From Poseidonia sp. (GTDB lineage Archaea; Thermoplasmatota; Poseidoniia; Poseidoniales; Poseidoniaceae): a DNA stretch of 64,000 bases. The notes under the pieces were generated by a model that saw only the letters and a program-made list of their open reading frames with translations, was not told the DNA's origin and ran no database searches. Below are positions 36,201 to 52,518 of this stretch, piece after piece (position 1 is the first letter of the stretch; each line of letters begins with the position of its first letter). Position numbers and translations under genes: made by a program. The stretch is from contig CBFIDD010000001.1 of the NCBI GenBank assembly GCA_965661285.1, forward strand, positions 32,001 through 96,000, in the 5' to 3' direction.

Positions 36201-37269
36201 AGTTGTTGTTGAAACTGTTGAGGCTGTCGCCGTCGCGGTACCCCCATGTCATGAACAGCACGGTTTCAGCACCTTCGTCTTCGATGGCGTTGCTGATGTT
36301 AACCGATGCGTTCTTGCTTTGCTGCCACATCAATTCTGTGGTCGGGAACGAGGGGACCTGGCTTTGGTCTTGAAGGATGACGTAATCCCAGTTTGAGCCT
36401 CGCAGCGTGGTGTTCCATTGATGTCCGGAAGTGTTCACGTTTTGCCAGTGTGCAGGGAGCTTCATCCCCCCGGCGGTAACCGATTGGACGGTGGCGTTGT
36501 AGCCGTCTGCGTCCATGATGCCTTCAACCACGGACGCCAAATTGTTGGCGTTGGTGTAACTGTTCCCCATCATCATCACCGAAACCGAAGCAGTGGTGGT
36601 GTTGGTCGTGCCGTTGGTGCCGTTGGAGTTCCCTTCGTCGTCATCGCTTGAGTTTCCGGAGGAATTCTCAGAGGAACTGTTGGTGTGGTTCGCCCACCAT
36701 GCGGCCAGGTCGGGTTGAACTTCGACATCGAGAAGGAAGGTGTCGGTGACCGAACCCAAATTTTGTGCGTTGAAACTCACGTTGGTGCTTTCACCGGCCG
36801 CCAAGGACAGCAGTGGAGAGCCCGAAACGCTCAACGAGGGATGGTAAGCGGGAGCGACCGAGACAAGTACGGTGAGAAACGTTGAGACACCTGCGTCCGG
36901 CTCCGTGACGTTGACAACAAAGGAACCGCTGTCCGCCACCGTCGCACCCTCTGTCAGACGAACGACGAGCGTGGTGTTCTTTGACCACGTCGGGAACACA
37001 TTGGACACCGTGGTTTCAACCGGTTGAACACTCCACGGTGATGCGAGGCCTGCCAAATCAACACTCACGTTATAGGATTCGATGGCTGAGGCGTTGTTTT
37101 CAATGGTGAGCGTGATGTTGGTGGTCTGTCCCGGTTCAAGGACGACGTGTTGCATGTCAACCGTCAGCAGGATGGAGTCGTCCGCCGCGACTGGCATCAC
37201 GAGGGGCGTGAGGCTCATGGCCATCAAGACGAGAACACAGAACACAGCACGGCCTGCACGGCTGGACAT
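33262..37269 (-). CDS. large anchored surface protein: NEW3/CARDB-like Ig repeats with an inserted SGNH hydrolase domain and a C-terminal TM plus Zn ribbon
   Basis: Repeated xNxGN..DxF Ig motifs; SGNH blocks MGNSYT, GGMKL, WDYVILQDQSQ and DGSHPS; tail CPSC...CPQC. Confidence 0.87.
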   Translation of the reverse strand: MSSRAGRAVFCVLVLMAMSLTPLVMPVAADDSILLTVDMQHVVLEPGQTTNITLTIENNASAIESYNVSVDLAGLASPWSVQPVETTVSNVFPTWSKNTTLVVRLTEGATVADSGSFVVNVTEPDAGVSTFLTVLVSVAPAYHPSLSVSGSPLLSLAAGESTNVSFNAQNLGSVTDTFLLDVEVQPDLAAWWANHTNSSSENSSGNSSDDDEGNSNGTNGTTNTTTASVSVMMMGNSYTNANNLASVVEGIMDADGYNATVQSVTAGGMKLPAHWQNVNTSGHQWNTTLRGSNWDYVILQDQSQVPSFPTTELMWQQSKNASVNISNAIEDEGAETVLFMTWGYRDGDSLNSFNNNFTSMQARLTEGYTRYAENISNAGNSVWIAPVGLAYKTVHDDVVADGDDPTASGNLFYDLYAADGSHPSLSGSYLAACVFHSSTTGETCVGSNDTVNLNANVKLALQQAADDTVFNQTAGMSYYPWEVSGTAAFGLGSSIPQGWYIQWQDDELANIPAGDGEPATLSITVPSDAAPDFYGFRLTIGSTNGNITSSTIIVVGVEAEPSLSTAFLRQDDVFLPGASTTTAVQVTNTGNAPLDLDWTLDMPSTVASTPCTSSLVTPQLLDLQPGAVGEVEIMVDVSENADGSATCPMVLTAHYDVEDASMVLDELTFNVEIDENVSFALAGPMATVDIVPNTGANYEIRLNNHGSDEATFFLDIVESAGLTTVLVSASGITVAAGGAGTWTVNTKGDASLSGMLQQTFSTAYSGQTSQLDVDIHLLEVDGLNILPPSDTRVLVTPGATATHTVVLENTGTSNLSLTPALSGLPSAVDVDFDIEAFGLDRNEQQAVVLTLSASNSATPGSSSAVLTYTSGSMSVAYEFEVVVVEREEIVVNTVQQRLLAGPASVSSSVVEATNLGTNGDVYLVEWTTESQGDWFEFTISPTTFQLSSGSTQSISVDVREVSSGAPDIGVVYTLRVVSTTNAAVHDEVAMTIQPVSASANLSVLTDVSTAAPSGSVYGTLRLTNTGNTEDTFSISTVGVDCGLDLSVTVPAGLASEPLGWSCVVPNDADAGQRALTFRAVSTVRSNVVVEYSTLYTVEADWPGDSLVAVSFVDGRLSLGVDSSTTTILTVQNLGNADVTGTLDAFGQDTGLVVLVWERLSDGEATTDYALTPGSSVDFQLTVVSNTARTAATELTVRATSTGGGVLTTDESIPLPVSIEGPALPPNGLALPLGVSVSQPATLGLMGAGWLVAIVAIQLLRRRSPKEEELGGDDVEEEEAEEEKDVPELGYNECRMDGDSKVNCPSCDARLGVPRGSTPPFRFSCPQCENKIRVVE

Positions 37270-38816: not shown

Positions 38817-39503
38817 TCATCCGAACAGGAGGATGTACCCGACGGCAAAGACCACCACATCGCACATGGCATGGGTGATGTAGGGAATCCAGATGCTTCG
38901 GTAGCGAACGTAGAGCCAACTGAACGCCGCTCCCCCAACGAACAGACCGAGGCAGGCCAAGAGGTTGGCTGTCAGGGAAAATCCGAGGAACCACAGGGCG
39001 AAAAAATGGTGCACCACGAAAACAAAAGCCGATGCGAAAATGGTCGGCCAGCCAGGGCCAAAAACAACCTCGCCTTTCTCAACGAGGAACCATCGAAACA
39101 CGTATTCCTCCAACACCGAATTTCCAACGGTCCAAAACACCGCCGCCGCAAGGTAGGTGCTGGGGTTGGTCAATCCGAAGGGTTCAAGGGTCAAGCGAAA
39201 CGTTTCGAGGTCCACACGAGACGCACCAATGAGGAACCATGCGAGCACCATGATGACGCAAAAAACAACCCCCATGGCCGTTGCCGCGACGATACCGCCG
39301 TTGTTGACCGGCGACCACGACCATGGTTTTCGGTCGACCTTGAGATGCCACCACAGCGGCAGGCCAAGCATCCAAGCCTTTGACAAAAACCATGCGAGTT
39401 GTCCCAGCAGACCTTCCCCCGTACCGAAGGACGTCAAAATGGAGGCGGTGGGGGCCAAGCCAACCAAAACGAGGGCCAGCCATGCCAGTCGTTTTTCCGA
39501 CAC
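38817..39503 (-). CDS. CPBP (CAAX/Abi) family intramembrane glutamic endopeptidase
   Basis: NSVLEEYVFRWF, FVVHH and ITHAMCD motifs; GAGGTG upstream of the GTG start. Confidence 0.9.
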   Translation of the reverse strand: MSEKRLAWLALVLVGLAPTASILTSFGTGEGLLGQLAWFLSKAWMLGLPLWWHLKVDRKPWSWSPVNNGGIVAATAMGVVFCVIMVLAWFLIGASRVDLETFRLTLEPFGLTNPSTYLAAAVFWTVGNSVLEEYVFRWFLVEKGEVVFGPGWPTIFASAFVFVVHHFFALWFLGFSLTANLLACLGLFVGGAAFSWLYVRYRSIWIPYITHAMCDVVVFAVGYILLFG

Positions 39504-39629
39504 GCCATGCACCTCATTCGATGAGCCGACATCATTGATGTTGGCCTTTCCGTGCTCCCCTCCTTGGTTTGTAAGCCCTTTCCCATCGTGCAGCACAAGC
39601 ATCATAGCCCAACCTCTCGTGTTTGTGGC

Positions 39630-40376
39630 ATGGCCGTTGACCGGGTGCAATGGGGGGCAGAGGCCTGGCAGTTTGCGGACCTCTACATGCCCGACGATCC
39701 CTCCCCGTTCCAGAAAGACGAGGGGATTCCCTGCGTCATGCTCATCCACGGTGGATTTTGGAAAGCGAAGTACACGCTCGACCTCATGCAGCCCATCGCT
39801 GAAGACCTGGCGGAAGCCGGTGTGGCTGCATGGAACGTTGAATTCAAGCGATGGTCACCCGATGAGGAGGGGGTGTGGATGGACACCCTCTCGGATGTGC
39901 TACGAGCGTGGGGCCACCTCGGCTTGCTGCGCGGCATCGACATCGCCCGCTCCATGGTGATGGGCCATTCGGCAGGCGGGCAACTCGCGCTCTTGATGAG
40001 CGCCAAGGCGGAACGAAAACCATGGCTGGCCGTGGCCCAAGCGCCCCTCACCGATTTGGTGGGTGCTGACCACGCATCGCTTTCCGACGAAGGTGATGCT
40101 GTTCGACGGTGGATTGGCTGCGCACCGGAAAGCAATCCAACCTTGTGGAGTCAACTCAACCCCGTTGACCATCCGCCGAAAACCAGCGTGTTGCTGTTTC
40201 ATGGCGAGGAGGACGTCGACGTTCCTCTTGAGCAATCCGAAACCTACGCCCGAGTGATGAAGGCCAAGGGCGCCGATGTCCAGAAGGTATGGCTTCCCGG
40301 CAATCACTACGACATCATTGACGTGGCTTCCGACGATTGGCTGGTTCAACTCAACACCGTCCTCGACTGGTTGTAA
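39630..40376 (+). CDS. alpha/beta hydrolase (HGG / GxSxG esterase-formamidase-like)
   Basis: LIHGGFW, MGHSAGGQLA, FHGEEDVDVP and GNH motifs. Confidence 0.9.
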   Translation: MAVDRVQWGAEAWQFADLYMPDDPSPFQKDEGIPCVMLIHGGFWKAKYTLDLMQPIAEDLAEAGVAAWNVEFKRWSPDEEGVWMDTLSDVLRAWGHLGLLRGIDIARSMVMGHSAGGQLALLMSAKAERKPWLAVAQAPLTDLVGADHASLSDEGDAVRRWIGCAPESNPTLWSQLNPVDHPPKTSVLLFHGEEDVDVPLEQSETYARVMKAKGADVQKVWLPGNHYDIIDVASDDWLVQLNTVLDWL

Positions 40377-40457
40377 AACCAACAACCGCATCCGACGATG
40401 ACCTCCTGCTTTTGGCCGCATCCCAAGGCCTATGACCTATGGGGAATTCCACCGCTC

Positions 40458-41273
40458 ATGGACCTCCTCGGCAGCGACTACCCGTTTCTCCCAACCGCCC
40501 TCGAGGGCAAGCACGCCTTTGTTTGCGGTGCGAGCAAAGGCATCGGTGAAGCCACTGCGAAAATGATGGCCAAAGCCGGTGCCCATGTGACGGTGTGTGC
40601 GCGAAACGGTGCTGCGTTGACCGCCCTGTGCGAGGAACTTGATCGCCTCGGTTCAGGCCGACACCAGGCGCTGATGCTCGATTTGGAAGAAACGGACAGC
40701 ATCGCATCGGCCTTTGACTCCGCTGTGGAGACGCTCGGCCCGGTTCACATCCTCATCAACAACGCCGGCGGCCCACCTGGAGGACCCCTGCTGAACAACG
40801 AAGTGGGCGACTTTGAAGCCCCGTTCCGCCGCCACCTTCACGCCGCTCACACCTTGGTCAAAGCCGCTGCCCCCGGGATGGAAGCAGCCGGCTACGGCCG
40901 CATCATCCAAATCATCTCAACATCGGTGAAAGAACCCATTCCAAACATTGGCCTGTCCAATACACTCCGAGGCGCCATGGCGTCGTGGGCCAAATCCATG
41001 TCCAACGAACTGGCGCCCTGCATCACCATCAACAACGTGCTGCCTGGATTCACCGACACCGACCGACTGGGCAACCTTTCCGCATCCATTCAGGAACGGA
41101 CAGGTAAATCTGCCGCCGATGTTCGAGCAGGCTGGTTGAACCAAGTGCCCATCGGCCGCCTCATCGACCCGCTTGAGACCGCCAGTGCCATCACATACCT
41201 CAGCCTGCCAGCCTCCGGTGGTATTCGAGGCGTGAGCTTGGCGGTTGATGGCGGACGACTTCGCTCCATCTGA
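40458..41273 (+). CDS. atypical SDR oxidoreductase
   Basis: CGASKGIG, NNAGGPPGG, ISTSVKEPIPNIGLSNTLR (no YxxxK) and VDGG. Confidence 0.92.
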   Translation: MDLLGSDYPFLPTALEGKHAFVCGASKGIGEATAKMMAKAGAHVTVCARNGAALTALCEELDRLGSGRHQALMLDLEETDSIASAFDSAVETLGPVHILINNAGGPPGGPLLNNEVGDFEAPFRRHLHAAHTLVKAAAPGMEAAGYGRIIQIISTSVKEPIPNIGLSNTLRGAMASWAKSMSNELAPCITINNVLPGFTDTDRLGNLSASIQERTGKSAADVRAGWLNQVPIGRLIDPLETASAITYLSLPASGGIRGVSLAVDGGRLRSI

Positions 41274-41282
41274 GGTGAAATC

Positions 41283-42131
41283 ATGGATGCCGAAGTCTCC
41301 CCTGAAATGGCTGCTCAAGTGCTGAGTATGCTCACAGACGGCGGGTCAATGGACCACATCAACACTTCCTTGGCCCTTCACTTGATTCCTCTCGCACAGG
41401 AACTCGACGACCACGAACTGGTGGAGCAGCTCTTGGAACACGCCAGGAACATCGCCTCCAACGACGAAGAGCGAGGGTGGGCGAAATTTGAGGCCCTCAA
41501 GGTGATGGAAGCGAAGATCGAAAGTTATCTCCCCCTCGCTGAAGAAGCCGAGCAACTCGAAGGTGCACAAGCGCTCTCAGCAGCGGTCAATCACTACGTG
41601 GCTCTGCTCTATCTGGCAGAAGACCGGCTGGACGAAGCCCGGGCAACCGCCCAACATGCGCTTCGCCTTCGCCACCTGCTCGAAGACAAGCAAGGCCTCT
41701 CGTACGGCATGGCGCTCCTGATGGCTATCGCCAAGCGGCAACACGATGAGGAGACGGCCATCGCGGTTGGAACGGAACGATTGGAATTGCTCATGACCCT
41801 CAAAGACGAGGAAGGCCAAATGGAGGTTCTGGCAGATTTGGCCCACAGTCAAGCGACCATCGGCGAGTTCAACACCGCACAGGACCTGTTCGAACAATCC
41901 TTGGAACGAGCCAAGGCCTTGGGAAGCCTCTCGGGTCAACTGGTTGCGAGGTGGGGGCTGGCGGATTTGGCCGAGATACGCGAAGACTACCAAGCCGCCA
42001 TGCTGGTCCTCTCCGATGCACTCCACGAATTCATCGGCGAAGACTTGGCCGCCCCTGCACAACTCAAACAACGCATCAACGATTTGACCAACCTGAAGGA
42101 CAAGCCAAACCCGAGCGGCGACGAAGCCTAG
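41283..42131 (+). CDS. TPR-like helical repeat protein
   Basis: Repeated A...L..A helices (LADLAHSQATIGEFNTAQDLFEQSL; LADLAEIREDYQAA). Confidence 0.75.
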   Translation: MDAEVSPEMAAQVLSMLTDGGSMDHINTSLALHLIPLAQELDDHELVEQLLEHARNIASNDEERGWAKFEALKVMEAKIESYLPLAEEAEQLEGAQALSAAVNHYVALLYLAEDRLDEARATAQHALRLRHLLEDKQGLSYGMALLMAIAKRQHDEETAIAVGTERLELLMTLKDEEGQMEVLADLAHSQATIGEFNTAQDLFEQSLERAKALGSLSGQLVARWGLADLAEIREDYQAAMLVLSDALHEFIGEDLAAPAQLKQRINDLTNLKDKPNPSGDEA

Positions 42132-42177
42132 TGCTCCACACCCATTATGAGCCATGGCGGTTTGGGAAGAACGGTGA

Positions 42178-43434
42178 GTGAACATGGAGCATGACATCTT
42201 CTTCTCCATCTCACAAACCCCTGATGAAGACGGCCATATTCCATCCGAGGCCACGATGTTGCGGAATTATTTCCAGCAACTGGAATGCGCTGACCGTCTT
42301 GGTTTCGGCGTGGGATGGATTGCTCAAGCCCACCTCTCAACCGAGACCCAGAAGTCAAACCAACGTCCGGTCGTGCCCCATTGGAAGGGCGAGGTTGGGC
42401 TCTGCACCGACTTTCCTCAACTCGCTTTGGAATCGTTTCGCCGCACCAACCGCATCGAAATTGGCAGCGCAGTGGTGTCCATTCTCGCCTCCGGAGGCCC
42501 CATCGCTCAGGCCGAACGCATGGCGAACCTCTTGAGCCTGCACGGCCTTGATGAGGACGAACACCGATGCTTGCACGTCGGGTTCTCAGCAGGGCGGTTT
42601 GAATTCATGGCCCGGCCCTATGGCGTCGTGCCCCGCAACGCGATTGAGGAAGCCGCGTGGCCGGCCCTACGAGGTCAAATCTTCATGGAGGCCGCCGAGA
42701 TTTTCCTGCGATTGTTGCGTGGCGACGTCATCAACTCCACCATGATTCGACCCACCGTGTTGACCCGAGCAAACTTCCGAAGCGATGGGGATTGGGAGGC
42801 CGTCCAAGACGCAGCGGTTGAATTTGAGGCGCTCGAAACGAGGCCTGAATCCATTGCGATTCCATCGAAGTACGTGTTTGAAGACCTCAAAATCATTCCA
42901 ACTGAGTTCCGTCGGTCGTTGTTGAAATTGGTCGCAGGCACGCACGACCCTCGAGCACAAACCTTCGTGAACAGCATTCTTCCCGTGAAGGTCTTCAACC
43001 TCTCCATCACCTCGCCCGAGGTCATTGATGCGACGCACGAGCGCATGCGGGAAGTCTACCACCCCGACGGCGGTGCTTGGAAGCGTAGCGACATGCCCCG
43101 AACGAGTTTTGTGTTCTTGAACGCCGAGGCCGGATTGACGCCGGAAGAACAGAGTGCTGCGGCGCAAATTGAAGCCGACCAGGCCCTCAGCGCTTACTGG
43201 AACGCACTCGAGGGGACCATCGACCCGGACAAGGTTTCCAAAGCCGCCAACAACGCTCTCATCGGCAACGTCGAAGAGGTGGCCCAACAGATGGTCGAAC
43301 GGTTCCACCCCGAGGACCGCATCATGGCGTGGTTTGATTTCTTCAACCACGATTCAGAACGTGTCTGCCGAAACATGACGGCCTACATGGAACAGGTGGT
43401 GCCACTGGTTGAGACGATGCTCAAGGAGGCGTAA
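42178..43434 (+). CDS. LLM class (luciferase-like) flavin-dependent oxidoreductase
   Basis: ADRLGFGVGWIAQAH, TNRIEIGSAV, PIAQAE, VGFSAG and ALIGNVEEVAQQM...MEQVVP follow the luciferase TIM-barrel pattern. Confidence 0.87.
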   Translation: MNMEHDIFFSISQTPDEDGHIPSEATMLRNYFQQLECADRLGFGVGWIAQAHLSTETQKSNQRPVVPHWKGEVGLCTDFPQLALESFRRTNRIEIGSAVVSILASGGPIAQAERMANLLSLHGLDEDEHRCLHVGFSAGRFEFMARPYGVVPRNAIEEAAWPALRGQIFMEAAEIFLRLLRGDVINSTMIRPTVLTRANFRSDGDWEAVQDAAVEFEALETRPESIAIPSKYVFEDLKIIPTEFRRSLLKLVAGTHDPRAQTFVNSILPVKVFNLSITSPEVIDATHERMREVYHPDGGAWKRSDMPRTSFVFLNAEAGLTPEEQSAAAQIEADQALSAYWNALEGTIDPDKVSKAANNALIGNVEEVAQQMVERFHPEDRIMAWFDFFNHDSERVCRNMTAYMEQVVPLVETMLKEA

Positions 43435-43436
43435 TC

Positions 43437-44555
43437 ATGGGGGTTCACCACGATACTTTTTCGGCCGTTCAACCCGGAAAACCCGGCTCTGCCATGTACC
43501 CCGAATCGCCGCTGGGCGAAAAGGTCGAAGGCATCCCGACCGGCCGGGATGTTGACTGGGAGCCGCTCGTGGACTATCGCCGAAACGGTGTCTCGGAAAC
43601 CACCATTCATGGTGCCGTCGCTTGGGCGCACGGCGACGAAGTGATCCACTCCTTTGGAGGCGACGTCCTCTGCTACGGCCGCTCAATGATGAAGCCCTTC
43701 ATGCTGAAAGCGTTCACGGACGAACTCGAAGATTGTTCATGGGAACAGAAGGCCATCGCCGTCGCCTCGCACAACGGCGACACCGAACACGTCGCGGCCG
43801 CCCAATCGCTGCTCAGCGAATCTGAATGGCCACTGATGCTCACGCCGCTGGATGTGCCACTGATTCAATTCGGGCGACAGGTTCGGCGGCCACGGCGCTG
43901 GTTTCACACCTGTTCGGGTGAACATGCAGCCATTCTGCGAGGCTGTCGCATGAAAGGCTGGAAGCGGGCCGGCTACACGCTACCAACGCACGAAGTCTTC
44001 CACGCCTACATGGAACAGTTGCGCACCTACCTCGGCGAGGATTGGGAGCCTCTTCGCATCGCCAAAGACGGTTGCGGCTTACCAACCGTCTCCAACACCG
44101 TCTCTGAATTGGCACAGATTTACGCCGGTCTGGTCCGCGACAAGGACGACGACTGGATTTGGGAAGCCATGGTACGACACCCCGACCTTGTGGGTGGATT
44201 CAATCGCCTCGATTCCACCGTCCTCAAAGCGGGGGAAGGCCGCGTCATCGCCAAGGAAGGCGCCGATGGTTTGCTTGGCATGGCCATTGAACACCCCGAC
44301 TATCCCAAAGGGCTGGGCATCGTCGTGAAAATTGCTCATGGTTGGAACTCCCAGGCCACATGGTATGTCGCAAGGGCGTTGCTGGGTGTGCTCGGCATCA
44401 ACTTGCGGAACCCCTACCCGCTCCACCGCCAAAAGGCGTTCATCGTCCCGGGCATCGTGCCCGAACGCTATGTTGAGGTCCTCGAAACCGTACCGACATG
44501 GGACGAATGGGACCCCGACCAGGACCGTTGGCATTTCGACCATGAGGTGAGTTGA
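43437..44555 (+). CDS. asparaginase II (Rhizobium etli AnsA / class 3) family protein, variant active site
   Basis: RSMMKPF, ASHNG, HTCSGEH, DGCGLP and AKEGADG motifs. Confidence 0.85.
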   Translation: MGVHHDTFSAVQPGKPGSAMYPESPLGEKVEGIPTGRDVDWEPLVDYRRNGVSETTIHGAVAWAHGDEVIHSFGGDVLCYGRSMMKPFMLKAFTDELEDCSWEQKAIAVASHNGDTEHVAAAQSLLSESEWPLMLTPLDVPLIQFGRQVRRPRRWFHTCSGEHAAILRGCRMKGWKRAGYTLPTHEVFHAYMEQLRTYLGEDWEPLRIAKDGCGLPTVSNTVSELAQIYAGLVRDKDDDWIWEAMVRHPDLVGGFNRLDSTVLKAGEGRVIAKEGADGLLGMAIEHPDYPKGLGIVVKIAHGWNSQATWYVARALLGVLGINLRNPYPLHRQKAFIVPGIVPERYVEVLETVPTWDEWDPDQDRWHFDHEVS

Positions 44556-46003
44556 TGAAGCCGATCATGAACTTCATCAACGGCGAATTTCAGCCCGCTG
44601 CTTCCGGAGCGGTCATGGAAACGGTCAATCCGGCTACAGGCGAAAGCATCACCACCCTGCCACGCTCCAACGCTGAAGATGTGGCACTCGCCACACGGGC
44701 CGCCCTCGAAGCAGGACCGGCATGGGCCGCCACGAGCCTCGAAGAACGCATGGCCTGGCTTCACCGCATCGCTGATGCGCTCGAGGAGGAGGCTGAAACC
44801 ATTGCACAACTCGAAAGCATGGACACCGGGAAACCCATCGCATTGGCCCGCCAAGTTGACGCTGCTCGTTCCGTGGCAAATTTCCGTTTTTTCGCTGACT
44901 TTGGACGCGACCACACCGAGCCGACCTTCGTTGACCATGGGGCCATCAACCACGTGCACCGCTCACCGGTCGGCTGCGTTGGACTCATCACGCCGTGGAA
45001 TCTCCCCCTCTACTTGCTCACCTGGAAAGTCGCGCCCGCCTTGTTGATGGGCAACACCATCGTGGCCAAACCCTCGGAACTGACCCCGATGACCGCCAAC
45101 CACCTCGCCAAGGTGCTGAAGCGTCTCGACTTTCCAAAGGGCGTTTTCAACCTCGTACACGGTCTTGGCCCCGAGGTGGGACAGGCCATTGTTGAACACC
45201 CAGACATACGAGGTATCTCCTTCACCGGCGGCACGGCCACGGGGAAAATCGTCGCTGCCACAGCCGCTCCGATGTTCAAGAAACTCTCCCTTGAACTCGG
45301 CGGAAAAAACGCCACCATCGTTCTGGCCGATGCACCGCTTGATTCGGTCATGGACGGGATCGTCCGAGCCTCGTTTACCAACTCCGGACAGGTGTGCTTG
45401 TGCGGCTCACGTGTGCTGGTGGACGCCACCATCTACGACCGCTTCAAGGCCAAGTTTATCGAAGCCGTCAACGGCATCGTCGTTGGCGACCCCACCAAGG
45501 AGAACACGGTCATGGGGTCGGTGATCTCCTCGGACCACCAAGCCAAAGTCGAATCGTACATCGAACTCGGCCGGCAAGAAGGCGGTACGGTGTTGACCGG
45601 TGGGCTGGCTTCTGAGGCACCGGTGGAGGGTGTCTCACCAAACGGAGCCTTTCTTCGACCGACCGTCATTGAAGGCTTGAGCCACACCACTCGCACCGCC
45701 ACCGAGGAAATCTTCGGGCCGGTGGTCACCCTTCATGCCTTCACCACGGAAGACGAAGCTGTTGCGATGGCCAACGCCACCGAATACGGCTTGGCAGGTT
45801 CGGTGTGGACGGCCGATGTGGAGCATGGACACGCCTTTGCGCAACGAATTGATACCGGCATCGTCTGGGTGAACACGTGGCTCAACCGAGACTTGCGGAC
45901 ACCCTTCGGCGGCGTCAAACAATCGGGAGTGGGAAGGGAAGGCGGTGCATGGTCGCTGAACTTTTTCTCTGAATTGACCAACATCTGTGTTCAGCAACCC
46001 TGA
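44555..46003 (+). CDS. aldehyde dehydrogenase, 2-aminomuconate/2-hydroxymuconate semialdehyde dehydrogenase (ALDH8/AmnC) type
   Basis: ITPWNLPLYLLTWKVAPAL, FTGGTATG, LELGGKNA, NSGQVCLCGSR, EEIFGPV and RDLRTPFGGVKQSGVGREGG; gene context supports the subtype. Confidence 0.88.
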   Translation: MKPIMNFINGEFQPAASGAVMETVNPATGESITTLPRSNAEDVALATRAALEAGPAWAATSLEERMAWLHRIADALEEEAETIAQLESMDTGKPIALARQVDAARSVANFRFFADFGRDHTEPTFVDHGAINHVHRSPVGCVGLITPWNLPLYLLTWKVAPALLMGNTIVAKPSELTPMTANHLAKVLKRLDFPKGVFNLVHGLGPEVGQAIVEHPDIRGISFTGGTATGKIVAATAAPMFKKLSLELGGKNATIVLADAPLDSVMDGIVRASFTNSGQVCLCGSRVLVDATIYDRFKAKFIEAVNGIVVGDPTKENTVMGSVISSDHQAKVESYIELGRQEGGTVLTGGLASEAPVEGVSPNGAFLRPTVIEGLSHTTRTATEEIFGPVVTLHAFTTEDEAVAMANATEYGLAGSVWTADVEHGHAFAQRIDTGIVWVNTWLNRDLRTPFGGVKQSGVGREGGAWSLNFFSELTNICVQQP

Positions 46004-46041
46004 GAACACATGTTCAAATGCTAGCCAAGCGGAGGCAAACC

Positions 46042-46770
46042 ATGGACGACAAAGCCCTTCCGCTGTTCGTCCTGCCCATGGTCTTGTTTCCCGGTGAACT
46101 TCAGGAACTGCGTGTGTTTGAACCAAGGTACCGACAGATGCTGGATACCTGCATTTTGGATGAGCGCCCGTTTGGTTTGGTGATGAACGACCCCTTCGCA
46201 CCCACCAACGGTTGGGATGGCCCCCGGCCGCACGGATGCGAGGCCATCATTCTCAATCACGAGACACGGGGCGTAAATCATTTCATCACCATCACCGGAG
46301 GACGTCGTTTCTTTGTCGAAGAGGTCATTGAGCCAGCACTCCCTCCGTTTTCTGACCCGTCCATGGCCACGCTGGTTGAAGAAGGATTAACCCCGGACGT
46401 CGACACCTTGCTGCAACATCTTCCGGAAGACGCCAACCACAGCAAATTGTACATCTCTGCCAAGGTCAACTACCTCGAGGAGGTGGGCGAATTGAACGAG
46501 GACGACAAAGGGTTCTTGCGCACACTGACCCGAACCATCGTCCACCGTGCGGGCCGCGGCATGAACGTGGACGTCGATGTGTTGGACGGCTGGGTCGAAT
46601 CCATCTGTGAGGAACAAATCTCTGAGCGAAAAGAGTCCATCTACAACATCGCCGCCTTGTGCCTTAACGACTTGGAAGGGCGTCAACAACTGCTGGCGAG
46701 TGCCAACGCAGAAGAGGCCCTGCACGAGCTTCAAAACCAAGTCTTTGGCTTCGCTGGCGAGGCAGAATAA
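46042..46770 (+). CDS. stand-alone LON peptidase substrate-binding domain protein
   Basis: [14 protein letters not shown]...[12 protein letters not shown]...FGLV and ITGGRRF motifs. Confidence 0.87.
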
Positions 46771-46813
46771 CCGCAGGCGACGAGTTCAAAACACCGTGAG
46801 CGGTGGAACCGCT

Positions 46814-47635
46814 ATGTCCGTTTACAGCGAAGCGCGGAAAGTCACCACGCACACGCTTCAGGAAATGAAGCGCGCAGGTGAGAAAATCACCATGCTCACC
46901 GCCTACGACTATTCCCTGGCGCGACTTGTCGACCAGGCGGGTGTTGATGTCATTCTTGTTGGCGACTCCGCCTCCAACGTCATGGCAGGCCAAGTCACCA
47001 CGGTGCCGATGACCCTCGACCACATGATCTACCACGCCCAATGCGTTGAGCGGGCCGTTGACCGCGCCCTCCTCGTGGTGGACATGCCGTTTGGCTCCTA
47101 CCAGGGCAATTCTCGCCAAGCCCTTGAGTCGGCCATTCGCATCATGAAAGAATCGAGCGGCCACGCCGTCAAACTGGAAGGTGGCGCTGAAATCGTGGAA
47201 TCCATTGAACGCATCTTAACCGCCGGCATCCCCGTCATGGGACATCTCGGATTGACCCCACAGTCCATCTACAAATTTGGCACCTACTCCGTCCGTGCCA
47301 AAGAAGAGGAGGAAGCGGAGAAGTTGATCGCCGACGCCAAGGTGTTGGAGGCTGCTGGATGCTTTGCCATCGTGCTTGAAAAAATTCCACGCGAACTCGC
47401 CAAGCGTGTCTCGCAAGCCCTAACCATTCCCACCATCGGCATCGGTGCTGGGCCTGATGTGGACGGGCAAGTGCTCGTGCTTCACGACCTGTTGGGCATC
47501 ACGATGGACTTCTCTCCACGCTTCCTTCGCCGCTACCTCAACCTCGCAGAGGACATCGACGGGGCCATCAAGGGATACTGTGCCGATGTGCGCTCCGGGG
47601 ACTTTCCCAACGACGATGAATCGTACACCTCGTGA
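46814..47635 (+). CDS. panB: 3-methyl-2-oxobutanoate hydroxymethyltransferase
   Basis: [40 protein letters not shown] and IGIGAG...DGQVLV motifs. Confidence 0.97.
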
Positions 47636-48130
47636 TCACATCAGCAGGCTGAAGTACAACAGCGAGCCACCCAAGGCCCCGATGTTCACGCCCATGGTGT
47701 GCCAAATGGCGAGCCGAAACGGAGGCAAGTGAAAACGCCACCATGAGGTGCTGACCCATATCCACAACACGGTGGCGAGATAGCCACCGCACACAAACCC
47801 ACCCATACCGGTGGACCAGACGAACAACAGCGGTACGCCGAGTGCGGCAATGCCGCCGAGATAGTCCAACCACATGGATTGGGGATGCGGCGTCAGCCAG
47901 CGGTGAAGCAACGGGGAAAAGAGCATCATGATGAGCAATCCGCCCTGAGGTGGATTGGGCAAGCCGTAGGTCAAATGCGGGGAAACCGTGGCCTGCCAAA
48001 CGGCACCTGCGACCATACCAAACAGCGTGGGGAACATGACGTTGACCCACGTTTCGGACCAGGTTGCGGAGACGGGTTGCTGAACGAGGAGTTCAGTCGA
48101 AGGGGACGCTTCGGCCTCTCCCGCTTCCAT
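47636..48130 (-). CDS. hypothetical membrane protein
   Basis: About 5 hydrophobic segments from MEAGEAEAS; fills the gap between panB and amnB. Confidence 0.7.
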   Translation of the reverse strand: MEAGEAEASPSTELLVQQPVSATWSETWVNVMFPTLFGMVAGAVWQATVSPHLTYGLPNPPQGGLLIMMLFSPLLHRWLTPHPQSMWLDYLGGIAALGVPLLFVWSTGMGGFVCGGYLATVLWIWVSTSWWRFHLPPFRLAIWHTMGVNIGALGGSLLYFSLLM

Positions 48131-48227
48131 GTGTAGACCCAATCCTGCCGCTTGTTTAGGGCTTCGTGTTGACCTTGGCTTGGTGGGGTGCCGATGATGA
48201 ATTAAACCTCGGTGCAGTGCGACATCC

Positions 48228-49130
48228 ATGGGCAAAGGCCAGATTGTCGCTGGATGCATTGCACCGCATCCGCCACACCTTGTGTATGCGGAAAACCCCC
48301 CTCAGAACGAGCCGGTCGCTGAAGGTGGTTGGGAACAACTGCGCTGGGGCTATGAACGCCTCCGTGCCTCCCTTGCCCAGCATGATTACGACGCCATCGT
48401 TCTTCTCTCACCGCACTGGCAAACCTACGTTGGCACCCATTTTCTCGGTCTGCCGCATTTTGAGGGGCTTTCGGTCGACCCGATTTTCCCCAATCTCTTT
48501 CGCTACCACTACGACATGAACGTGGACGTCGAACTTGCGAAGGCCATCCATGACGAAGCGGCCAAAGCTGGGCTGCCGGTGAAGATGATGGAAAATCCTG
48601 ACTTCCGTGTTGACTACGGTACCATCACCACCGGGCACCTGTTCAACCCCGAATGGGACAAACCGCTCGTGGTGATTTCCAGTAACCGCTCCACGGCCTA
48701 CTACTCGGTCGAGGTCATGCAAGAAATCATGATCGAACTCGGAAAAGTCACCCGCAAGGCCATTGAGGCCAGCGGAAAGAAGGTCGTGGTCCTCGCCAGC
48801 AATTCACTCTCCCACCGCCACTTCACCACCGAATCGGAGGTTCCCGAAGACATGAGCAAAGAACACATCACCAGCCACGCCATGCATCTGTGGGACATGC
48901 GGATGATCGATTACATGCGCAGCGGACAAGCCCAACGCATTCTTGACGAAATGCCCGAATTCACCGAACAGGCCATCGCAGAGAGCGACGGTGGCGGCCT
49001 CTCATGGCTGCTCTCCGCCCTGGATGTCCCGGATTACCCAGCCATCCTCCACGGCTATGGCACCATCATCGGGACCGGAAACGCCGTGGTCGAATGGCCC
49101 TGTTATGCTCACGAGGTGAACGACGCATGA
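48228..49130 (+). CDS. amnB: 2-aminophenol 1,6-dioxygenase beta (catalytic) subunit, LigB/extradiol class III
   Basis: APHPPHLVYAENPPQNEP..GGWE.LRW, SPHW, SVDPIFPNLFRY, NPDFRVDYGTITT, LASNSLSH, PEDMSKE and YGTIIGTGNAVVEW closely match AmnB/CnbCb as I recall them. Fe-ligand His, His and Glu positions are retained. Confidence 0.9.
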   Translation: MGKGQIVAGCIAPHPPHLVYAENPPQNEPVAEGGWEQLRWGYERLRASLAQHDYDAIVLLSPHWQTYVGTHFLGLPHFEGLSVDPIFPNLFRYHYDMNVDVELAKAIHDEAAKAGLPVKMMENPDFRVDYGTITTGHLFNPEWDKPLVVISSNRSTAYYSVEVMQEIMIELGKVTRKAIEASGKKVVVLASNSLSHRHFTTESEVPEDMSKEHITSHAMHLWDMRMIDYMRSGQAQRILDEMPEFTEQAIAESDGGGLSWLLSALDVPDYPAILHGYGTIIGTGNAVVEWPCYAHEVNDA

Positions 49131-50572
49131 GTGCAGGCGACGTGGTGGCCTCGTTTGTTGTGCCCGTTCACCCCCATACGGTGCTGGCGCCCGACCAAAG
49201 CCCGGGATGGCGCCGATTGCGAGACGCATTCGACGAAGCCGCTCAAACCATTCGCGACCTCGAAGCGGATTTGCTCATCATCTACTCGACCACATGGCCC
49301 TCCATCATCGGCCATCAAATCCAAGCCGACCCCAATCCCGAGTGGGTCATGGTGGACCACGATTTCCACGACCTTGGCTCCATTCCCTATTCGTTCAACA
49401 TCGACGCTGAATTCGCCCACGCGTGGAACGAAGCCAACGAAAAGCGAGGCCTCCAGAGCCGCTGTGTGAACTACAAGGGCTTCCCCATCGATGTCGGTTC
49501 CGTGGTGGCACTCACGCTGCTCAATCCCGACAACACCATCCCGGCCGTCATCGTCTCCTCAAACATGTACGCCAACCGGAGCGAGACAACGGTGCTGGCC
49601 AAGTCCTGCCTTGACGTGGTGAAAGCCCAAGGACGCCGCGCGGTGGCCATCACCGCCATGTCCCTCTCCAACCGGATGTTCACCGATTTCATCCAGCCTG
49701 AGGAGGACAAGATTCACTCCCTCAAGGACGACGAGTGGAACAGGAAAATATTGGAATTCCTCGAACAGGGACGCCTGGAAGATGTCGGTCAACTTTCGCG
49801 GACCATCCACCGTCAAATTCGAGTGCAAAAAGTGGTCGCGTTCAAGCCCATGTGGTGGCTTTCGGCGATGAACGGAAATCGCAACGATTTGACCGGGCGC
49901 GTCATGGCCTACGAGGCCATCCACGGTGCTGGAGGTGCCGTTGTTCACCTCGACCCAACGCCATCAGGTGCAGGGGACAAGGAATACGACGAGGATGATG
50001 TGGAGTATTTCCACGGCGAGCGTGGTGTGCTTGACGCAGGGGCGGACGACGTCGATTCGCCAACAGCGTCCGAGCCGGCCGAGGCTGGCAGCGAAGAGCC
50101 AGCATCCGTGACACAAGCCAACGGCCCCGCCTTGTGGGACCCAACCCAAGCCGAGGGTTCGGTCAACACCGAGGCAGCGCCAAAACCGGTGGGCGCCTAC
50201 CCGCACGCTCGGAAAGTGGGCGATATGCTCTACCTTTCCGGCGTTGGTCCTCGGCAACCCGGCACCAACGCCATCCCCGGAGGACCGATTCACGACGAGG
50301 ACGGCGATCCACTTGACTACGATATCAAAGCGCAGACACACGCTGTCGTGGAAAACATCCGCCGTATCGTCGAAGAAGCCGGAGCTCGGTTTGACCAGAT
50401 CGTGGATGTCACCACCTTCCTCGTTGACATGAAGCGGGATTTCGCGGGGTACAACGAAGTGTGGGCTGAAACCCTTGGAACGGTTGGGCCCACCCGCACC
50501 ACCCTTGCCATCGATGCGCTACCAACGCCCATCGCGGTGGAGATGAAGGTCATCGTCCACCTCGGGGAATGA
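49127..50572 (+). CDS. amnA: fusion: 2-aminophenol 1,6-dioxygenase alpha subunit + RidA-family (2-aminomuconate deaminase-like) domain
   Basis: N-terminus YSTTW, VNYKGFPIDVGS, SSNMY and EDKI...DDEWNRKIL (AmnA-like); acidic linker; C-terminus APKPVGAYPHARKVGDMLYLSGVGPR...DVTTFLVDMKRDF..YN...PTRTT...LPTPIAVEMK (RidA). Confidence 0.86.
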   Translation: MSAGDVVASFVVPVHPHTVLAPDQSPGWRRLRDAFDEAAQTIRDLEADLLIIYSTTWPSIIGHQIQADPNPEWVMVDHDFHDLGSIPYSFNIDAEFAHAWNEANEKRGLQSRCVNYKGFPIDVGSVVALTLLNPDNTIPAVIVSSNMYANRSETTVLAKSCLDVVKAQGRRAVAITAMSLSNRMFTDFIQPEEDKIHSLKDDEWNRKILEFLEQGRLEDVGQLSRTIHRQIRVQKVVAFKPMWWLSAMNGNRNDLTGRVMAYEAIHGAGGAVVHLDPTPSGAGDKEYDEDDVEYFHGERGVLDAGADDVDSPTASEPAEAGSEEPASVTQANGPALWDPTQAEGSVNTEAAPKPVGAYPHARKVGDMLYLSGVGPRQPGTNAIPGGPIHDEDGDPLDYDIKAQTHAVVENIRRIVEEAGARFDQIVDVTTFLVDMKRDFAGYNEVWAETLGTVGPTRTTLAIDALPTPIAVEMKVIVHLGE

Positions 50573-50680
50573 TTTCCGGAATCCGGCGTTTGTTTATCGA
50601 ATACATACAAATTGCTAATATCCTTTGGCGATTATCACGAAACAACACAGCATTCTGGTGTTAGAAATCGGGGAATGTTC

Positions 50681-52078
50681 ATGGGTGTTGATAAAACCGT
50701 TGAATTGGCTCGTAGCATTGGCCTGAAAACGCTGGTCGTCCTCTCGCTATCTTCCATGTTGGGTTCCGGCCTGTTTTTGCTTCCGGCCTTTGCACAGGAA
50801 GTTGTAGGCCCCGGCATGTGGTTTGCGTTCCTGCTGGCCGGAAGCGTCGTCATCGCCAGCGCCTACTCAAAGGCCGAACTGGCGAGCGCCATGCCCCAGT
50901 CTGGCGGATTCTACGTGTACGCCGAGCGAACGTACGGACATTTGGTGGGCACCATCAGTGGTTTGGGCCTCTTTGCATCCTTTATGCTAAAATCCGCTTT
51001 TGCCCTTGTTGGTTTTGCAGCGTATATGGAGGTCATCACAACCCACTTTGGCATTGATGATGTGAATTCAAAAGCCATCGCCATGGTCCTTCTCGTCCTC
51101 ATTTTGGTCGTGAACATCACCGGCGTGAAAGCCATCAAGAAAGTGCAGGTGCCCATCGTTACCGGTGCGGTCGCTACCGTCGTCCTCCTGTGTATCATGG
51201 CGTTGTTTTCCAATGATTTGGACCTCAGTCGACCCGTACAAGACTTCCAACCGGTCAGTCTGAAGATGGGCACTGCTGCTGCACTGGTCTTTGTCGCCTT
51301 TTCAGGTGCCATCAAAGTTGGTGCTATCGGCGGCGAAGTGCTCGACCCGGAAACAAACCTCCCACGTGGCATGATTCAGTCCCTGTTCATCGCCACCGCC
51401 CTTTACGCCGTCGTCGCCTACATCATGGTGGCCGTCATGGCGCCGGACTGGTACATGACCGACGGTCATGCAGTTGAAAATCCAATCAGCGTCTTTGCCG
51501 ACTCGGTCGCCGGCACCACTGTGGTACTGCTCGCCTCCTTCGTCGCCATCATCGCCATGGCTTCAATGGCCCTGGCGGGCGTGCTTTCGTCCTCTCGGTT
51601 CATCTATGCCATGGCCAAGGACGGCGTCCTTCCAGCCCCGCTCGCTGAGTTGAACGAACGCTACAAGACGCCTCACTGGCCAATTTTGTTGACGGGGTTG
51701 TTGATGGCGATCTCCATCTATTCCTTCGATGTCCATGTCATTGCAGAACTTGCCTCCGGATTCATCCTCATGGTCTTCATCGTGCTCAACTTGACCGTCG
51801 TGGTGCTTCGTGGTGCAGAACCAAGGCATGCTTGGGACCCACCTTACCGTTCACCTTTGTATCCAATTCCGCAAATCTACGGAACCATTGCGGGAATTGC
51901 AATGTTGATTCTCATGGGGGAAAAGGCGCTTTATGGCGGTCTGGGCGCCGTCGCCATCGGTATGTTGGCGTGGTACGCCTACGGTCGTCGAAACGTCAAA
52001 CCTCGTGAAGGCGAAACGCCACTCAATGCGTTCTTGAACCGTGATGGAGAGCCATCGACTCCAAAAGAGCAAGAATAA
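50681..52078 (+). CDS. APC family amino acid permease
   Basis: SMLGSGLFLLP, AELASAMPQSGGFYVY, GGEVLDPETNLP, SRFIYAMAKDG and YKTPH motifs. Confidence 0.93.
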   Translation: MGVDKTVELARSIGLKTLVVLSLSSMLGSGLFLLPAFAQEVVGPGMWFAFLLAGSVVIASAYSKAELASAMPQSGGFYVYAERTYGHLVGTISGLGLFASFMLKSAFALVGFAAYMEVITTHFGIDDVNSKAIAMVLLVLILVVNITGVKAIKKVQVPIVTGAVATVVLLCIMALFSNDLDLSRPVQDFQPVSLKMGTAAALVFVAFSGAIKVGAIGGEVLDPETNLPRGMIQSLFIATALYAVVAYIMVAVMAPDWYMTDGHAVENPISVFADSVAGTTVVLLASFVAIIAMASMALAGVLSSSRFIYAMAKDGVLPAPLAELNERYKTPHWPILLTGLLMAISIYSFDVHVIAELASGFILMVFIVLNLTVVVLRGAEPRHAWDPPYRSPLYPIPQIYGTIAGIAMLILMGEKALYGGLGAVAIGMLAWYAYGRRNVKPREGETPLNAFLNRDGEPSTPKEQE

Positions 52079-52098
52079 CCTCGCCAACCCTCAAGTCC

Positions 52099-52518
52099 TC
52101 AAGCGAGGATGAGACGGAGGTTTTCGAGGCTGCGGAGTTCTGCAAAGTAAATTTGTTCAATCGCATCGTACATCTCCTGGTCGCCAACCTCTTCGAGCAG
52201 TTGGGTGATGCCTGCATAGACTTCAGCCGCTTTTGTTTCGGTCTCCAACGAGCATTCGAGCATGGTCTTGTAGTCCGTCGTGTGGACGATCGCGTGGCCG
52301 TTTCGTTCCGTGACGGGAACACCGCCCAACTTCACGATGGCTCTGCGAACCACATCGGCGTGGGCCATTGATTCTGTGGCTTCTTCGTTGAACATCGGGT
52401 CCAACTGGAGACGGTGAATTCCCTGAACGTTCGCAGCATAATGTGCGTACATGGTCATGGCACGCAATTCCCATCCGAGGGCTTCGTTGAGGCTTTCAAT
52501 CAATTCGTCGGCACCCAT
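52099..52518 (-). CDS. ferritin-like (bacterioferritin/Dps-like) four-helix protein
   Basis: LNEALGWELRAMTMY, EEATESMAHA...IVKLGG and LETE...Y...IYFAE motifs. Confidence 0.85.
   Translation of the reverse strand: MGADELIESLNEALGWELRAMTMYAHYAANVQGIHRLQLDPMFNEEATESMAHADVVRRAIVKLGGVPVTERNGHAIVHTTDYKTMLECSLETETKAAEVYAGITQLLEEVGDQEMYDAIEQIYFAELRSLENLRLILA

Follow-up and report, generated by a model that had tools for sequence, protein, structure and literature searches.

A near-universal gene module of Poseidoniales archaea and a possible kynureninase-independent route from tryptophan through 2-aminophenol

Described routes and the locus compared with them

In Pseudomonas and Comamonas, 2-aminophenol is opened by the dioxygenase AmnBA to 2-aminomuconic semialdehyde, the semialdehyde is oxidised by AmnC, and AmnD, a member of the RidA family, carries out the deamination to 4-oxalocrotonate. 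The corresponding amn/cnb/nbz clusters (Pseudomonas, Comamonas testosteroni CNB-1, Burkholderia) encode a heteromeric LigB dioxygenase, whose beta subunit is catalytic and whose alpha subunit is inactive, and are linked to nitroarene and chloroarene genes, and dmpE, dmpH, dmpG, dmpF and a tautomerase gene are present in pCNB and two other plasmid clusters. Tryptophan catabolism is textbook biochemistry with few routes known, and the classical kynurenine pathway starts with tryptophan 2,3-dioxygenase and a formamidase and ends with 2-aminomuconate semialdehyde dehydrogenase and deaminase. Marine Group II (MGII) archaea are generally described as protein and lipid degraders. Here we analysed a stretch of 64,000 nucleotides, referred to as the window, from the MGII archaeon Poseidonia sp. 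(order Poseidoniales; assembly GCA_965661285.1, contig CBFIDD010000001.1, positions 32,001 to 96,000), in which a predicted 2-aminophenol 1,6-dioxygenase (AmnB and an AmnA-RidA fusion) is encoded near an AmnC-type aldehyde dehydrogenase (ALDH), a luciferase-like protein (LLM), an Asparaginase_II-family (AsnII-like) protein and a short-chain dehydrogenase/reductase (SDR). On balance, we favour the reading that this module serves a kynureninase-independent catabolism, in which tryptophan would be converted through kynurenine to aspartate and 2-aminophenol, the latter then being ring-opened and deaminated.

Judged by homology, the lower half of the module appears to consist of amn/cnb-family genes, and it shares with those clusters a LigB dioxygenase with a predicted catalytic beta and inactive alpha subunit, an AmnC-type ALDH, a RidA-type 2-aminomuconate deaminase and the order amnB then amnA. 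Unlike them, the archaeal genome shows no dmpE, dmpH, dmpF, dmpG or tautomerase genes (acetaldehyde dehydrogenase was not searched for), RidA is fused to AmnA, and AmnB falls into a separate clade; the archaeal genes lie on chromosomes and are near-universal in an order of plankton, and genes of this type have LLM, AsnII-like, SDR and tryptophan dioxygenase genes as partners instead of nitroarene and chloroarene genes. With the classical kynurenine pathway the proposed route has its start and its end in common, whereas kynureninase, 3-hydroxyanthranilate 3,4-dioxygenase (3-HAO) and 2-amino-3-carboxymuconate-6-semialdehyde decarboxylase (ACMSD) were not found in this genome and a kynurenine 3-monooxygenase could not be clearly identified. 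The module therefore seems to fit neither scheme: it is not a canonical amn operon because the lower pathway is lacking, and not the classical kynurenine pathway because those three enzymes are lacking. With the ring opened by AmnBA on 2-aminophenol, there would be no carboxylated intermediate and no quinolinate branch.

Genes were located by listing open reading frames (ORFs), and families were assigned by Pfam, NCBIfam and Protein Data Bank (PDB) sequence searches. AmnB aligns over residues 1-291 with solved 2-aminophenol 1,6-dioxygenase beta subunits (8ihg_A, 1.9e-110; 3vsg_B, 2.9e-107) and is 54-58% identical to five plasmid-borne AmnB/CnbCb proteins. Alignment with cnbCb of pCNB showed that His14, His63, His196 and Glu252 are present at the positions of His13, His62, His195 and Glu251 of CnbCb, which we take to be the iron ligands and the catalytic histidine. 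In the AmnA part of the fusion, V, T, N and Q stand at these positions, as expected of an inactive alpha subunit, and this part matches the alpha subunit 3vsg_A. These comparisons support AmnB as the catalytic beta subunit of the predicted dioxygenase and the AmnA part as its putative non-catalytic alpha subunit. An acidic low-complexity linker (residues ~318-385 of the fusion) leads to the RidA part at residues 389-519 of the long ORF, which has a Pfam Ribonuc_L-PSP match of 5.3e-24 and for which the best match was the 2-aminomuconate deaminase 6izh (2.1e-25, against 3e-6 for RutC). The fusion is lineage-specific, because in the related genome G051 amnB, amnA and ridA are three separate ORFs; the stand-alone RidA gene there (L030 11362-12048) has an N-terminal extension of ~95 residues.

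For the ALDH, 2-aminomuconate-6-semialdehyde dehydrogenases take all seven top places among the PDB matches (1.4e-137 to 8.2e-132), and Arg120, Glu268, Cys302 and Arg464 are kept in the alignment (4i1w numbering); presumably Arg120 and Arg464 of 4i1w hold the substrate carboxylate, and Cys302 and Glu268 are catalytic. A quick maximum-likelihood tree was computed from 49 beta subunits and rooted with seven alpha subunits, with support given by the Shimodaira-Hasegawa-like approximate likelihood ratio test (SH-aLRT) and without bootstraps. AmnB was placed on the beta-subunit side, within a clade of 44 archaeal and bacterial-cluster sequences (SH-aLRT 94) that leaves out the five plasmid AmnB/CnbCb. 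The archaeal AmnB sequences of genome families f1, to which the Poseidonia genome belongs, and f3 are each monophyletic (SH-aLRT 99), their placement relative to the bacterial sequences not being settled by this quick tree. The first-pass annotation, made from the letters of this DNA alone, had named nine genes here and proposed AmnBA, an AmnC-type ALDH and an AmnD-type RidA domain as the catabolic core. All nine genes are present on the plus strand with the families it had given them, and the core has strong matches to solved enzymes with the presumed catalytic residues kept, so that it seems sound at the level of homology; as to its grouping of the dioxygenase with AmnAB, the beta-subunit placement stood, but in the quick tree without bootstraps the protein belongs to a clade apart from the five plasmid AmnB/CnbCb.

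The genome-wide negatives come from Pfam-family searches of this 93%-complete genome. Kynureninase reached 29 bits against a cut-off of 246 and 3-HAO 16 bits at best, and no match was obtained to Amidohydro_2/ACMSD, KynB, DmpG_comm or Tautomerase. Nor did a clear kynurenine 3-monooxygenase emerge, the one strong FAD_binding_3 match not having been examined. The sole FAA_hydrolase gene is YcgM-like and was for this reason rejected as a 4-oxalocrotonate decarboxylase. The remark made at the outset that the window lacks the lower meta-cleavage pathway and 3-HAO/ACMSD thus extends to the whole genome as covered by these searches, and a look for kynU, nbaC and nbaD gave the same result. Kynureninase exceeded its cut-off in none of 60 f1 genomes, this one included, and in three of 121 genomes of the order, and it was found at E<=1e-10 in none of five module-carrying bacterial genomes. 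The three candidate carriers in the order, which may be genuine or due to contamination, belong to genera g10 and g4 (G055:C29:6106-7323, G125:C56:7236-8453 and G135:C276:1478-2512).

Conservation of the module and its linkage to tryptophan dioxygenase

Two blocks of genes, SDR-LLM-AsnII-ALDH and amnB-amnA-ridA, are conserved. The genes amnB and amnA were found in 59 of 61 related genomes (12 genera, 3 families), the two misses being 80% and 92% complete, and the AsnII-like gene in 119 of the 121 genomes of the order. Among 20 loci fetched around amnB, LLM/AsnII/ALDH genes lay within 10 kb of it in ten. In 16 loci fetched around AsnII, LLM adjoins AsnII without exception, as it does in every locus compared; SDR is also present in all 16, directly upstream of LLM or of a tetratricopeptide repeat (TPR) gene plus LLM in ~12, ALDH comes next in 15 with the contig ending in the sixteenth, and amnB is within reach in six. 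In a phylum sample of 301 genomes, LLM was detected in 87 and amnB in 89, both in the same five families only (f1, f3, f4, f28 and f30), and their presence or absence agreed in 299 genomes; within f4, the same five of eight genomes carry both. The module is a near-universal core trait of the order and not a peripheral xenobiotic trait. The TPR gene, the Lon N-terminal-domain (Lon-N) gene and the position of panB are confined to f1, and these three are lineage-specific insertions that are not conserved with the module. The co-conservation across Poseidoniales on which the first-pass annotation had made its proposal depend was thus found, together with synteny inside the blocks; the TPR gene, which it had counted in the run, drops out.

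The module also extends beyond the archaea. In a species-representative genome collection, the AsnII-like protein gave 580 confirmed matching stretches, from which 80 loci (27 labelled bacterial and 53 archaeal) were kept and the window proteins mapped on them. A close homologue, at 87% identity, carries the label Candidatus Poseidoniaceae archaeon, and homologues with 73-80% identity are labelled Myxococcota, Alpha- and other Proteobacteria, Planctomycetota, Eiseniibacteriota and Bdellovibrionales. Many bacterial-labelled loci hold one cluster of dioxygenase, SDR, LLM, AsnII, ALDH, amnB, amnA(-ridA) and KynB genes, and in several loci of Myxococcota, Planctomycetota and Eiseniibacteriota amnB directly follows the AsnII-like gene. 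Of the 27 bacterial-labelled loci, nine encode tryptophan 2,3-dioxygenase and 17 a KynB homologue; three KynB candidates are Pfam Cyclase proteins, and the one of locus L084 scored 216 bits against the arylformamidase model TIGR03035 (cut-off 223). Between the tryptophan dioxygenase and SDR genes of this proteobacterial cluster lies a small Rieske [2Fe-2S] ferredoxin gene (L084 7580-8059, plus strand). Two of the loci with bacterial labels look like mis-binned or mislabelled MGII contigs: L126 (NZEQ01000011.1), filed as a Verrucomicrobiales metagenome-assembled genome (MAG), has the MGII gene order with 85-97% identical proteins and a 94% identical lysyl-tRNA synthetase, and L122 (CALDQY010000240.1), filed as a Rhodobiaceae MAG, is a 4.2-kb contig holding only AsnII-ALDH-panB in the order of MGII f1.

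Tryptophan 2,3-dioxygenase was found in 119 of the 121 genomes of the order, in all five bacterial genomes with the module and in 104 of the 301 genomes of the phylum sample. In f4, tryptophan dioxygenase, LLM and amnB lie within ~6.6 kb in four of the five module-positive genomes, and in the fifth the dioxygenase is beside LLM with amnB on another contig. In seven of 13 f28 genomes, a tryptophan-dioxygenase-like gene stands beside LLM; these are partial matches of 60-85 bits spanning approximately the first 135 profile positions (e.g. G194:C1:94582-94956 and G274:C4:43157-43531), which suggests a divergent or shortened tryptophan-dioxygenase-like protein. The gene of the Poseidonia genome (G000:C3:140906-141916, 204 bits) has heme A/O synthase genes upstream and purP as neighbours, and directly downstream of it lies a 219-aa ORF without Pfam match (G000:C3:140175-140834; L062 7175-7834, minus strand). 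An upper pathway starting from a tryptophan- or kynurenine-type compound and built from the LLM, the amidase-like enzyme and the hydrolase, which had at first been no more than a suggestion, is made more plausible by the gene clusters, which hold tryptophan dioxygenase and KynB genes in bacteria and a dioxygenase gene in f4 and f28, as well as by kynureninase not being found in f1, this genome included, or in the five bacterial genomes.

A candidate route from tryptophan to 2-aminophenol

The proposed route would begin with tryptophan 2,3-dioxygenase, which opens the indole ring to N-formylkynurenine. The formyl group would then be removed by the alpha/beta hydrolase encoded at the head of the window's run or, in other lineages, by a formyltransferase-like protein or KynB. 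The conversion of kynurenine into 2-aminophenol needs the aryl-carbonyl bond to be replaced by an aryl-OH, which an oxygenase and a hydrolase can achieve through Baeyer-Villiger insertion, and in the 4-hydroxyacetophenone route Baeyer-Villiger insertion is followed by hydrolysis. The LLM, acting on kynurenine or on N-formylkynurenine, would accordingly insert an oxygen between the aromatic ring and the side-chain carbonyl, giving a beta-aspartyl 2-aminophenyl ester that an O-to-N acyl shift may turn into N4-(2-hydroxyphenyl)asparagine. Either compound is of the kind that an asparaginase-family active site could accept, and the AsnII-like serine hydrolase would split the ester or anilide to L-aspartate and 2-aminophenol. 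AmnBA would next turn 2-aminophenol into 2-aminomuconic semialdehyde, the AmnC-type ALDH would oxidise the semialdehyde, and the RidA domain fused to AmnA would deaminate 2-aminomuconate to 4-oxalocrotonate; these last assignments are predictions from strong homology to characterised enzymes. What the data establish are the identities of the genes, their conservation and their linkage, from which every reaction upstream of AmnBA is inferred. As in aryl-ketone catabolism, an oxygenase and then a hydrolase would convert an aryl ketone into a phenol and an acid, but in contrast to the 4-hydroxyacetophenone route the proposed substrate is the amino acid kynurenine and the hydrolase is of the asparaginase family instead of a carboxylesterase. 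The scheme accounts for the LLM, AsnII-like, ALDH, AmnBA and RidA proteins as well as for the missing kynureninase, 3-HAO and ACMSD.

Three unrelated proteins occupy what looks like one step, the deformylation of N-formylkynurenine. The alpha/beta hydrolase of the window matches Pfam BD-FAE (2e-16), Peptidase_S9 and Abhydrolase_3, and its weak PDB match to the Drosophila kynurenine formamidase 4e11 (E 2.4e-4) is a hint only; we regard it as the candidate N-formylkynurenine formamidase of this lineage. Among the 53 archaeal loci, the gene adjoining SDR encodes the alpha/beta hydrolase in 31 and a Formyl_trans_N-like protein in eight, and both in none, the other 14 being too short to reach the neighbour of SDR or holding neither gene. 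The Formyl_trans_N-like protein (~245 aa, Pfam 9.8e-13) could be a deformylase or a transferase saving the formyl group, and a close homologue of its gene was not found in the Poseidonia genome (best 28% over 86 residues). This gene was observed directly upstream of SDR in f3 and in two f1 genera. In the bacterial clusters, KynB would fill the slot.

The LLM has a luciferase-like TIM-barrel fold according to its structure model. Its Bac_luciferase (PF00296) score of 18.5 bits is under the Pfam cut-off of 27.9 and no NCBIfam match was obtained, but an AlphaFold model built from 22 sequences (predicted local distance difference test score, pLDDT, 91.8; predicted template modelling score, pTM, 0.90) matched in Foldseek the luciferase-like TIM barrels 2i7g, 8cbb, RslO1 (7bip) and LuxA (1luc) with E ~1e-14 (1.1e-14) and probability 1.00, and its sequence neighbours in the atlas carry PF00296. 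The family is small and isolated: out of 1.84 billion, 315 representatives match at E<=1e-3, and a large share of these are fragments. Type II Baeyer-Villiger monooxygenases (BVMOs), namely the diketocamphane monooxygenases 4uwm and 5aec, share this fold with the LLM, but at 12-13% identity.

The AsnII-like protein belongs to PF06089, as do the class 3 L-asparaginases ReAV and ReAIV of Rhizobium etli (7os3, 8cly), which it matches in the PDB at 2.5e-16. Its alignment with these two shows the S-x-x-K, ASH, DGC and K-x-GADG motifs intact, including both Ser-Lys pairs, which we assume to be the nucleophile pairs of the class 3 enzymes, the Cys-Lys-Cys of CSGKH...DGC presumably being their zinc site. 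Across its homologues, GRSMMKP is conserved in 106 of 106, KEGADG in 105 and ASHNG in 77. It differs from ReAV and ReAIV in being weakly similar to them (~1e-16), in an additional N-terminal region of ~45 residues, in reading CSGEH for CSGKH and in standing always in this operon context.

For the SDR, only generic SDR/FabG-type matches were obtained in PDB and NCBIfam, and its gene is kept directly upstream of LLM, or of TPR plus LLM, in archaeal and bacterial loci alike. It may serve flavin reduction for the LLM, or the reduction of 4-oxalocrotonate (towards 2-oxoadipate) or of 2-aminomuconate. The TPR gene between SDR and LLM in f1 loci has one weak match in f3 loci (L031, 28% identity) and occurs in no bacterial locus except the mislabelled L126; it is probably an f1-specific insertion and not a catalytic part.

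Several observations weigh against the proposed route. As to the LLM, the protein is 12-17% identical to any solved structure, the best matches of its model are luciferases and uncharacterised monooxygenases, and the type II BVMO 4uwm (3,6-diketocamphane monooxygenase) ranks 23rd with E 1.1e-10, so that the Baeyer-Villiger step is proposed from chemical logic and the fold class of a model; the scheme, moreover, has no place for the conserved SDR. In the AsnII-like family, the asparaginase motif CSGKH reads CSGEH in all 106 homologues with both cysteines kept, and since the presumed zinc-site lysine is a glutamate, the chemistry may differ from that of class 3 asparaginases. Two of the lower enzymes fall short of NCBIfam thresholds, the ALDH with 542 bits against the 693.25 required by TIGR03216, the 2-hydroxymuconic semialdehyde dehydrogenase equivalog, and the RidA domain with 86.5 bits against 106.25 for TIGR00004; these scores, like the 54-58% identity of AmnB to the plasmid proteins, speak against a simple assignment as orthologues. 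The canonical decarboxylase, hydratase and aldolase genes were not found, so that the scheme stops at 4-oxalocrotonate. With respect to gene linkage, three unrelated genes, one of them on the opposite strand, part the two blocks in this genome; over 100 kb lies between the blocks in several f3 genera (~125 kb in the single-contig genome G051); and tryptophan dioxygenase is on a different contig from the window and is not exclusive to the module, being also present in the module-free families f9, f22, f25, f27 and f46. Finally, related genomes are not independent samples, and the counts above are to be read as a pattern and not as a statistic.

The point about mechanism bears on the alternative that survives best, in which the same path leads from tryptophan through 2-aminophenol to ring cleavage by another middle chemistry. 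The SDR could act first on the ketone or amino group of kynurenine, the LLM could catalyse a hydroxylation or an oxidative C-C or C-N cleavage, or the AsnII-like protein could act on a different amide. Gene linkage backs the pathway and not any one mechanism, LLM enzymes catalyse many types of reaction, the best structural matches of this one are not BVMOs, and the SDR is conserved beside the module yet idle in the Baeyer-Villiger scheme. Nevertheless, we consider such a chemistry unlikely: turning an aryl-carbonyl into an aryl-OH with one oxygenase and one hydrolase amounts to Baeyer-Villiger oxidation followed by ester or amide hydrolysis, the acid set free would be aspartate, in keeping with an active site of the asparaginase family, and a simpler alternative from the SDR, LLM and AsnII families could not be formulated.

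That the dioxygenase instead scavenges free 2-aminophenol or environmental aromatic amines, unrelated to tryptophan and with neighbours serving other purposes, would agree with the homology of AmnB, AmnA, ALDH and RidA to xenobiotic amn/cnb enzymes and with the amn genes of the window forming a unit of their own with the permease. The conservation data make this very unlikely, as the module is near-universal in streamlined planktonic genomes of 1.3-2.1 Mb, its AmnB stands apart from the five plasmid-borne xenobiotic AmnB and co-occurs with LLM family by family, the genes cluster with tryptophan dioxygenase and KynB in bacteria and with the dioxygenase in other archaea, and the lower pathway typical of xenobiotic clusters was not found.

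With equally little probability, the two blocks could be unrelated modules that are often neighbours, SDR-LLM-AsnII-ALDH acting in a Rut-like manner on another nitrogen compound and amnBA-ridA independently of it. In the Rut pyrimidine pathway, RutA is a luciferase-like oxygenase, RutB an amidohydrolase, RutC a RidA protein and RutD an alpha/beta hydrolase, and the enzyme-family set here resembles this combination, which likewise handles a nitrogen-containing ring; the blocks are separable, with over 100 kb between them in G051 and a contig for each in certain genomes of the same genus, and the ALDH is under its equivalog cut-off. On the other hand, the ALDH of the first block has its closest similarity to the enzyme acting on the AmnBA product, amnB comes directly after the AsnII-like gene in the bacterial loci named above, LLM and amnB share their distribution in all but two of the sampled genomes, and no RutA match was obtained in NCBIfam at E<=0.001. 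A Rut-like pathway as such was rejected: besides the missing RutA match, the RidA domain is far closer to 2-aminomuconate deaminase than to RutC, and the amidohydrolase is of a different family. The notion that the dioxygenase pair serves nicotinamide adenine dinucleotide (NAD) synthesis, by turning 3-hydroxyanthranilate into the quinolinate precursor, is hardly credible, for although LigB-type AmnB acts on ortho-aminophenols and the genome is without a cupin 3-HAO, no kynureninase was found to make 3-hydroxyanthranilate, on which ground this function was rejected, no clear kynurenine 3-monooxygenase turned up apart from the unexamined FAD_binding_3 match, and a catabolic function is indicated by the AmnC-type ALDH and by the deaminase fused to AmnA.

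Returning to the tryptophan route, its fullest form is held here with slightly more doubt than confidence: abundant surface-ocean archaea and many marine bacteria would cleave kynurenine by a Baeyer-Villiger reaction and hydrolyse the product with the AsnII-like enzyme, 2-aminophenol would occupy a central place in natural metabolism, the xenobiotic amn/cnb/nbz operons would have branched off from this housekeeping pathway, and three unrelated enzymes would have been recruited as formamidase. If true, two enzyme reactions would be new, that of a kynurenine Baeyer-Villiger oxygenase and that of a beta-aspartyl-aminophenol hydrolase, and two widespread and highly conserved families (LLM and AsnII-like) would thereby obtain functions. 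The route would also provide the 'xenobiotic' 2-aminophenol dioxygenase family with a physiological function, explain the otherwise orphan tryptophan dioxygenase of MGII archaea and make aerobic aromatic ring cleavage a core trait of protein-degrading plankton. In the searchable literature, from which subscription journals and supplementary tables were excluded (the latter may list annotations), we found no description of the route or of these genes in Poseidoniales; 'aminophenol' and 'Marine Group II' occurred together only in a community-level pathway prediction (PMC12113859), and PMC8049014 proved to have no bearing on the question. The steps past 2-aminomuconate are still being found even in animals, according to a 2026 preprint (10.64898/2026.06.05.730449).

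Layout of the region and neighbouring genes

The features of the region are collected in Table 1. The first-pass annotation had described a co-oriented run from the alpha/beta hydrolase to the permease; its nine genes do share the plus strand, but the run is neither contiguous nor fully co-oriented, because the Lon-N gene, panB and a minus-strand gene separate ALDH from amnB. As these three genes interrupt the run, there are at least two predicted transcription units in this genome, one from the hydrolase to panB and the other from amnB to the permease. A sigma-70 and terminator scan of 39000-52500, not designed for archaea, found sites no more numerous than in shuffles.

Table 1. Positions of the features in the window, with the formyltransferase-like gene of other loci added
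Feature	Position	Strand	Basis or remark
Alpha/beta hydrolase	39630-40376	+	ORF opens at GTG 39552; likely start ATG 39630
SDR oxidoreductase	40398-41273	+	Pfam adh_short 6.2e-38
TPR protein	41283-42131	+	Pfam TPR_12 2.1e-7
Luciferase-like protein (LLM), 418 aa	42178-43434	+	Pfam Bac_luciferase, sub-threshold; fold by structure model
Asparaginase_II-family (AsnII-like) protein	43437-44555	+	PF06089 7e-48, 163.7 bits (cut-off 25)
AmnC-type ALDH	44552-46003	+	Best PDB match 1.4e-137
Lon N-terminal-domain gene (LON_substr_bdg)	46018-46770	+	Pfam
panB	within ORF 46577-47635	+	Pfam
Hydrophobic 207-aa protein	47636-48259	-	Without Pfam match
amnB, LigB family, 300 aa	48228-49130	+	PDB 8ihg_A 1.9e-110
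amnA-ridA fusion	49127-50572	+	PDB 3vsg_A 8.1e-41; RidA part 6izh 2.1e-25
APC-family amino-acid permease	50612-52078	+	Pfam AA_permease_2 4.8e-40
Formyl_trans_N-like gene	L036 12584-13321	-	Same position in L022, L027, L035, L037-L041, L047-L051

The hydrophobic protein between panB and amnB is encoded on the opposite strand and its gene overlaps the start of amnB by ~30 bases; it is kept at the protein level, at the same position and with 30-80% identity, in f1 relatives. Directly downstream of amnA-ridA, as had been claimed, lies the APC permease, which might import the substrate; it is listed after amnA in most archaeal loci reaching that far and is not found in the bacterial clusters. Two very large proteins flank the region, one of 1335 aa (33262-37269, minus strand) and one of 864 aa (52581-55175, minus strand). 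They carry Ig-like/CARDB-type and carboxypeptidase-regulatory-like domains and are probably surface proteins, and the gene for the 864-aa protein is kept beside the permease in relatives.

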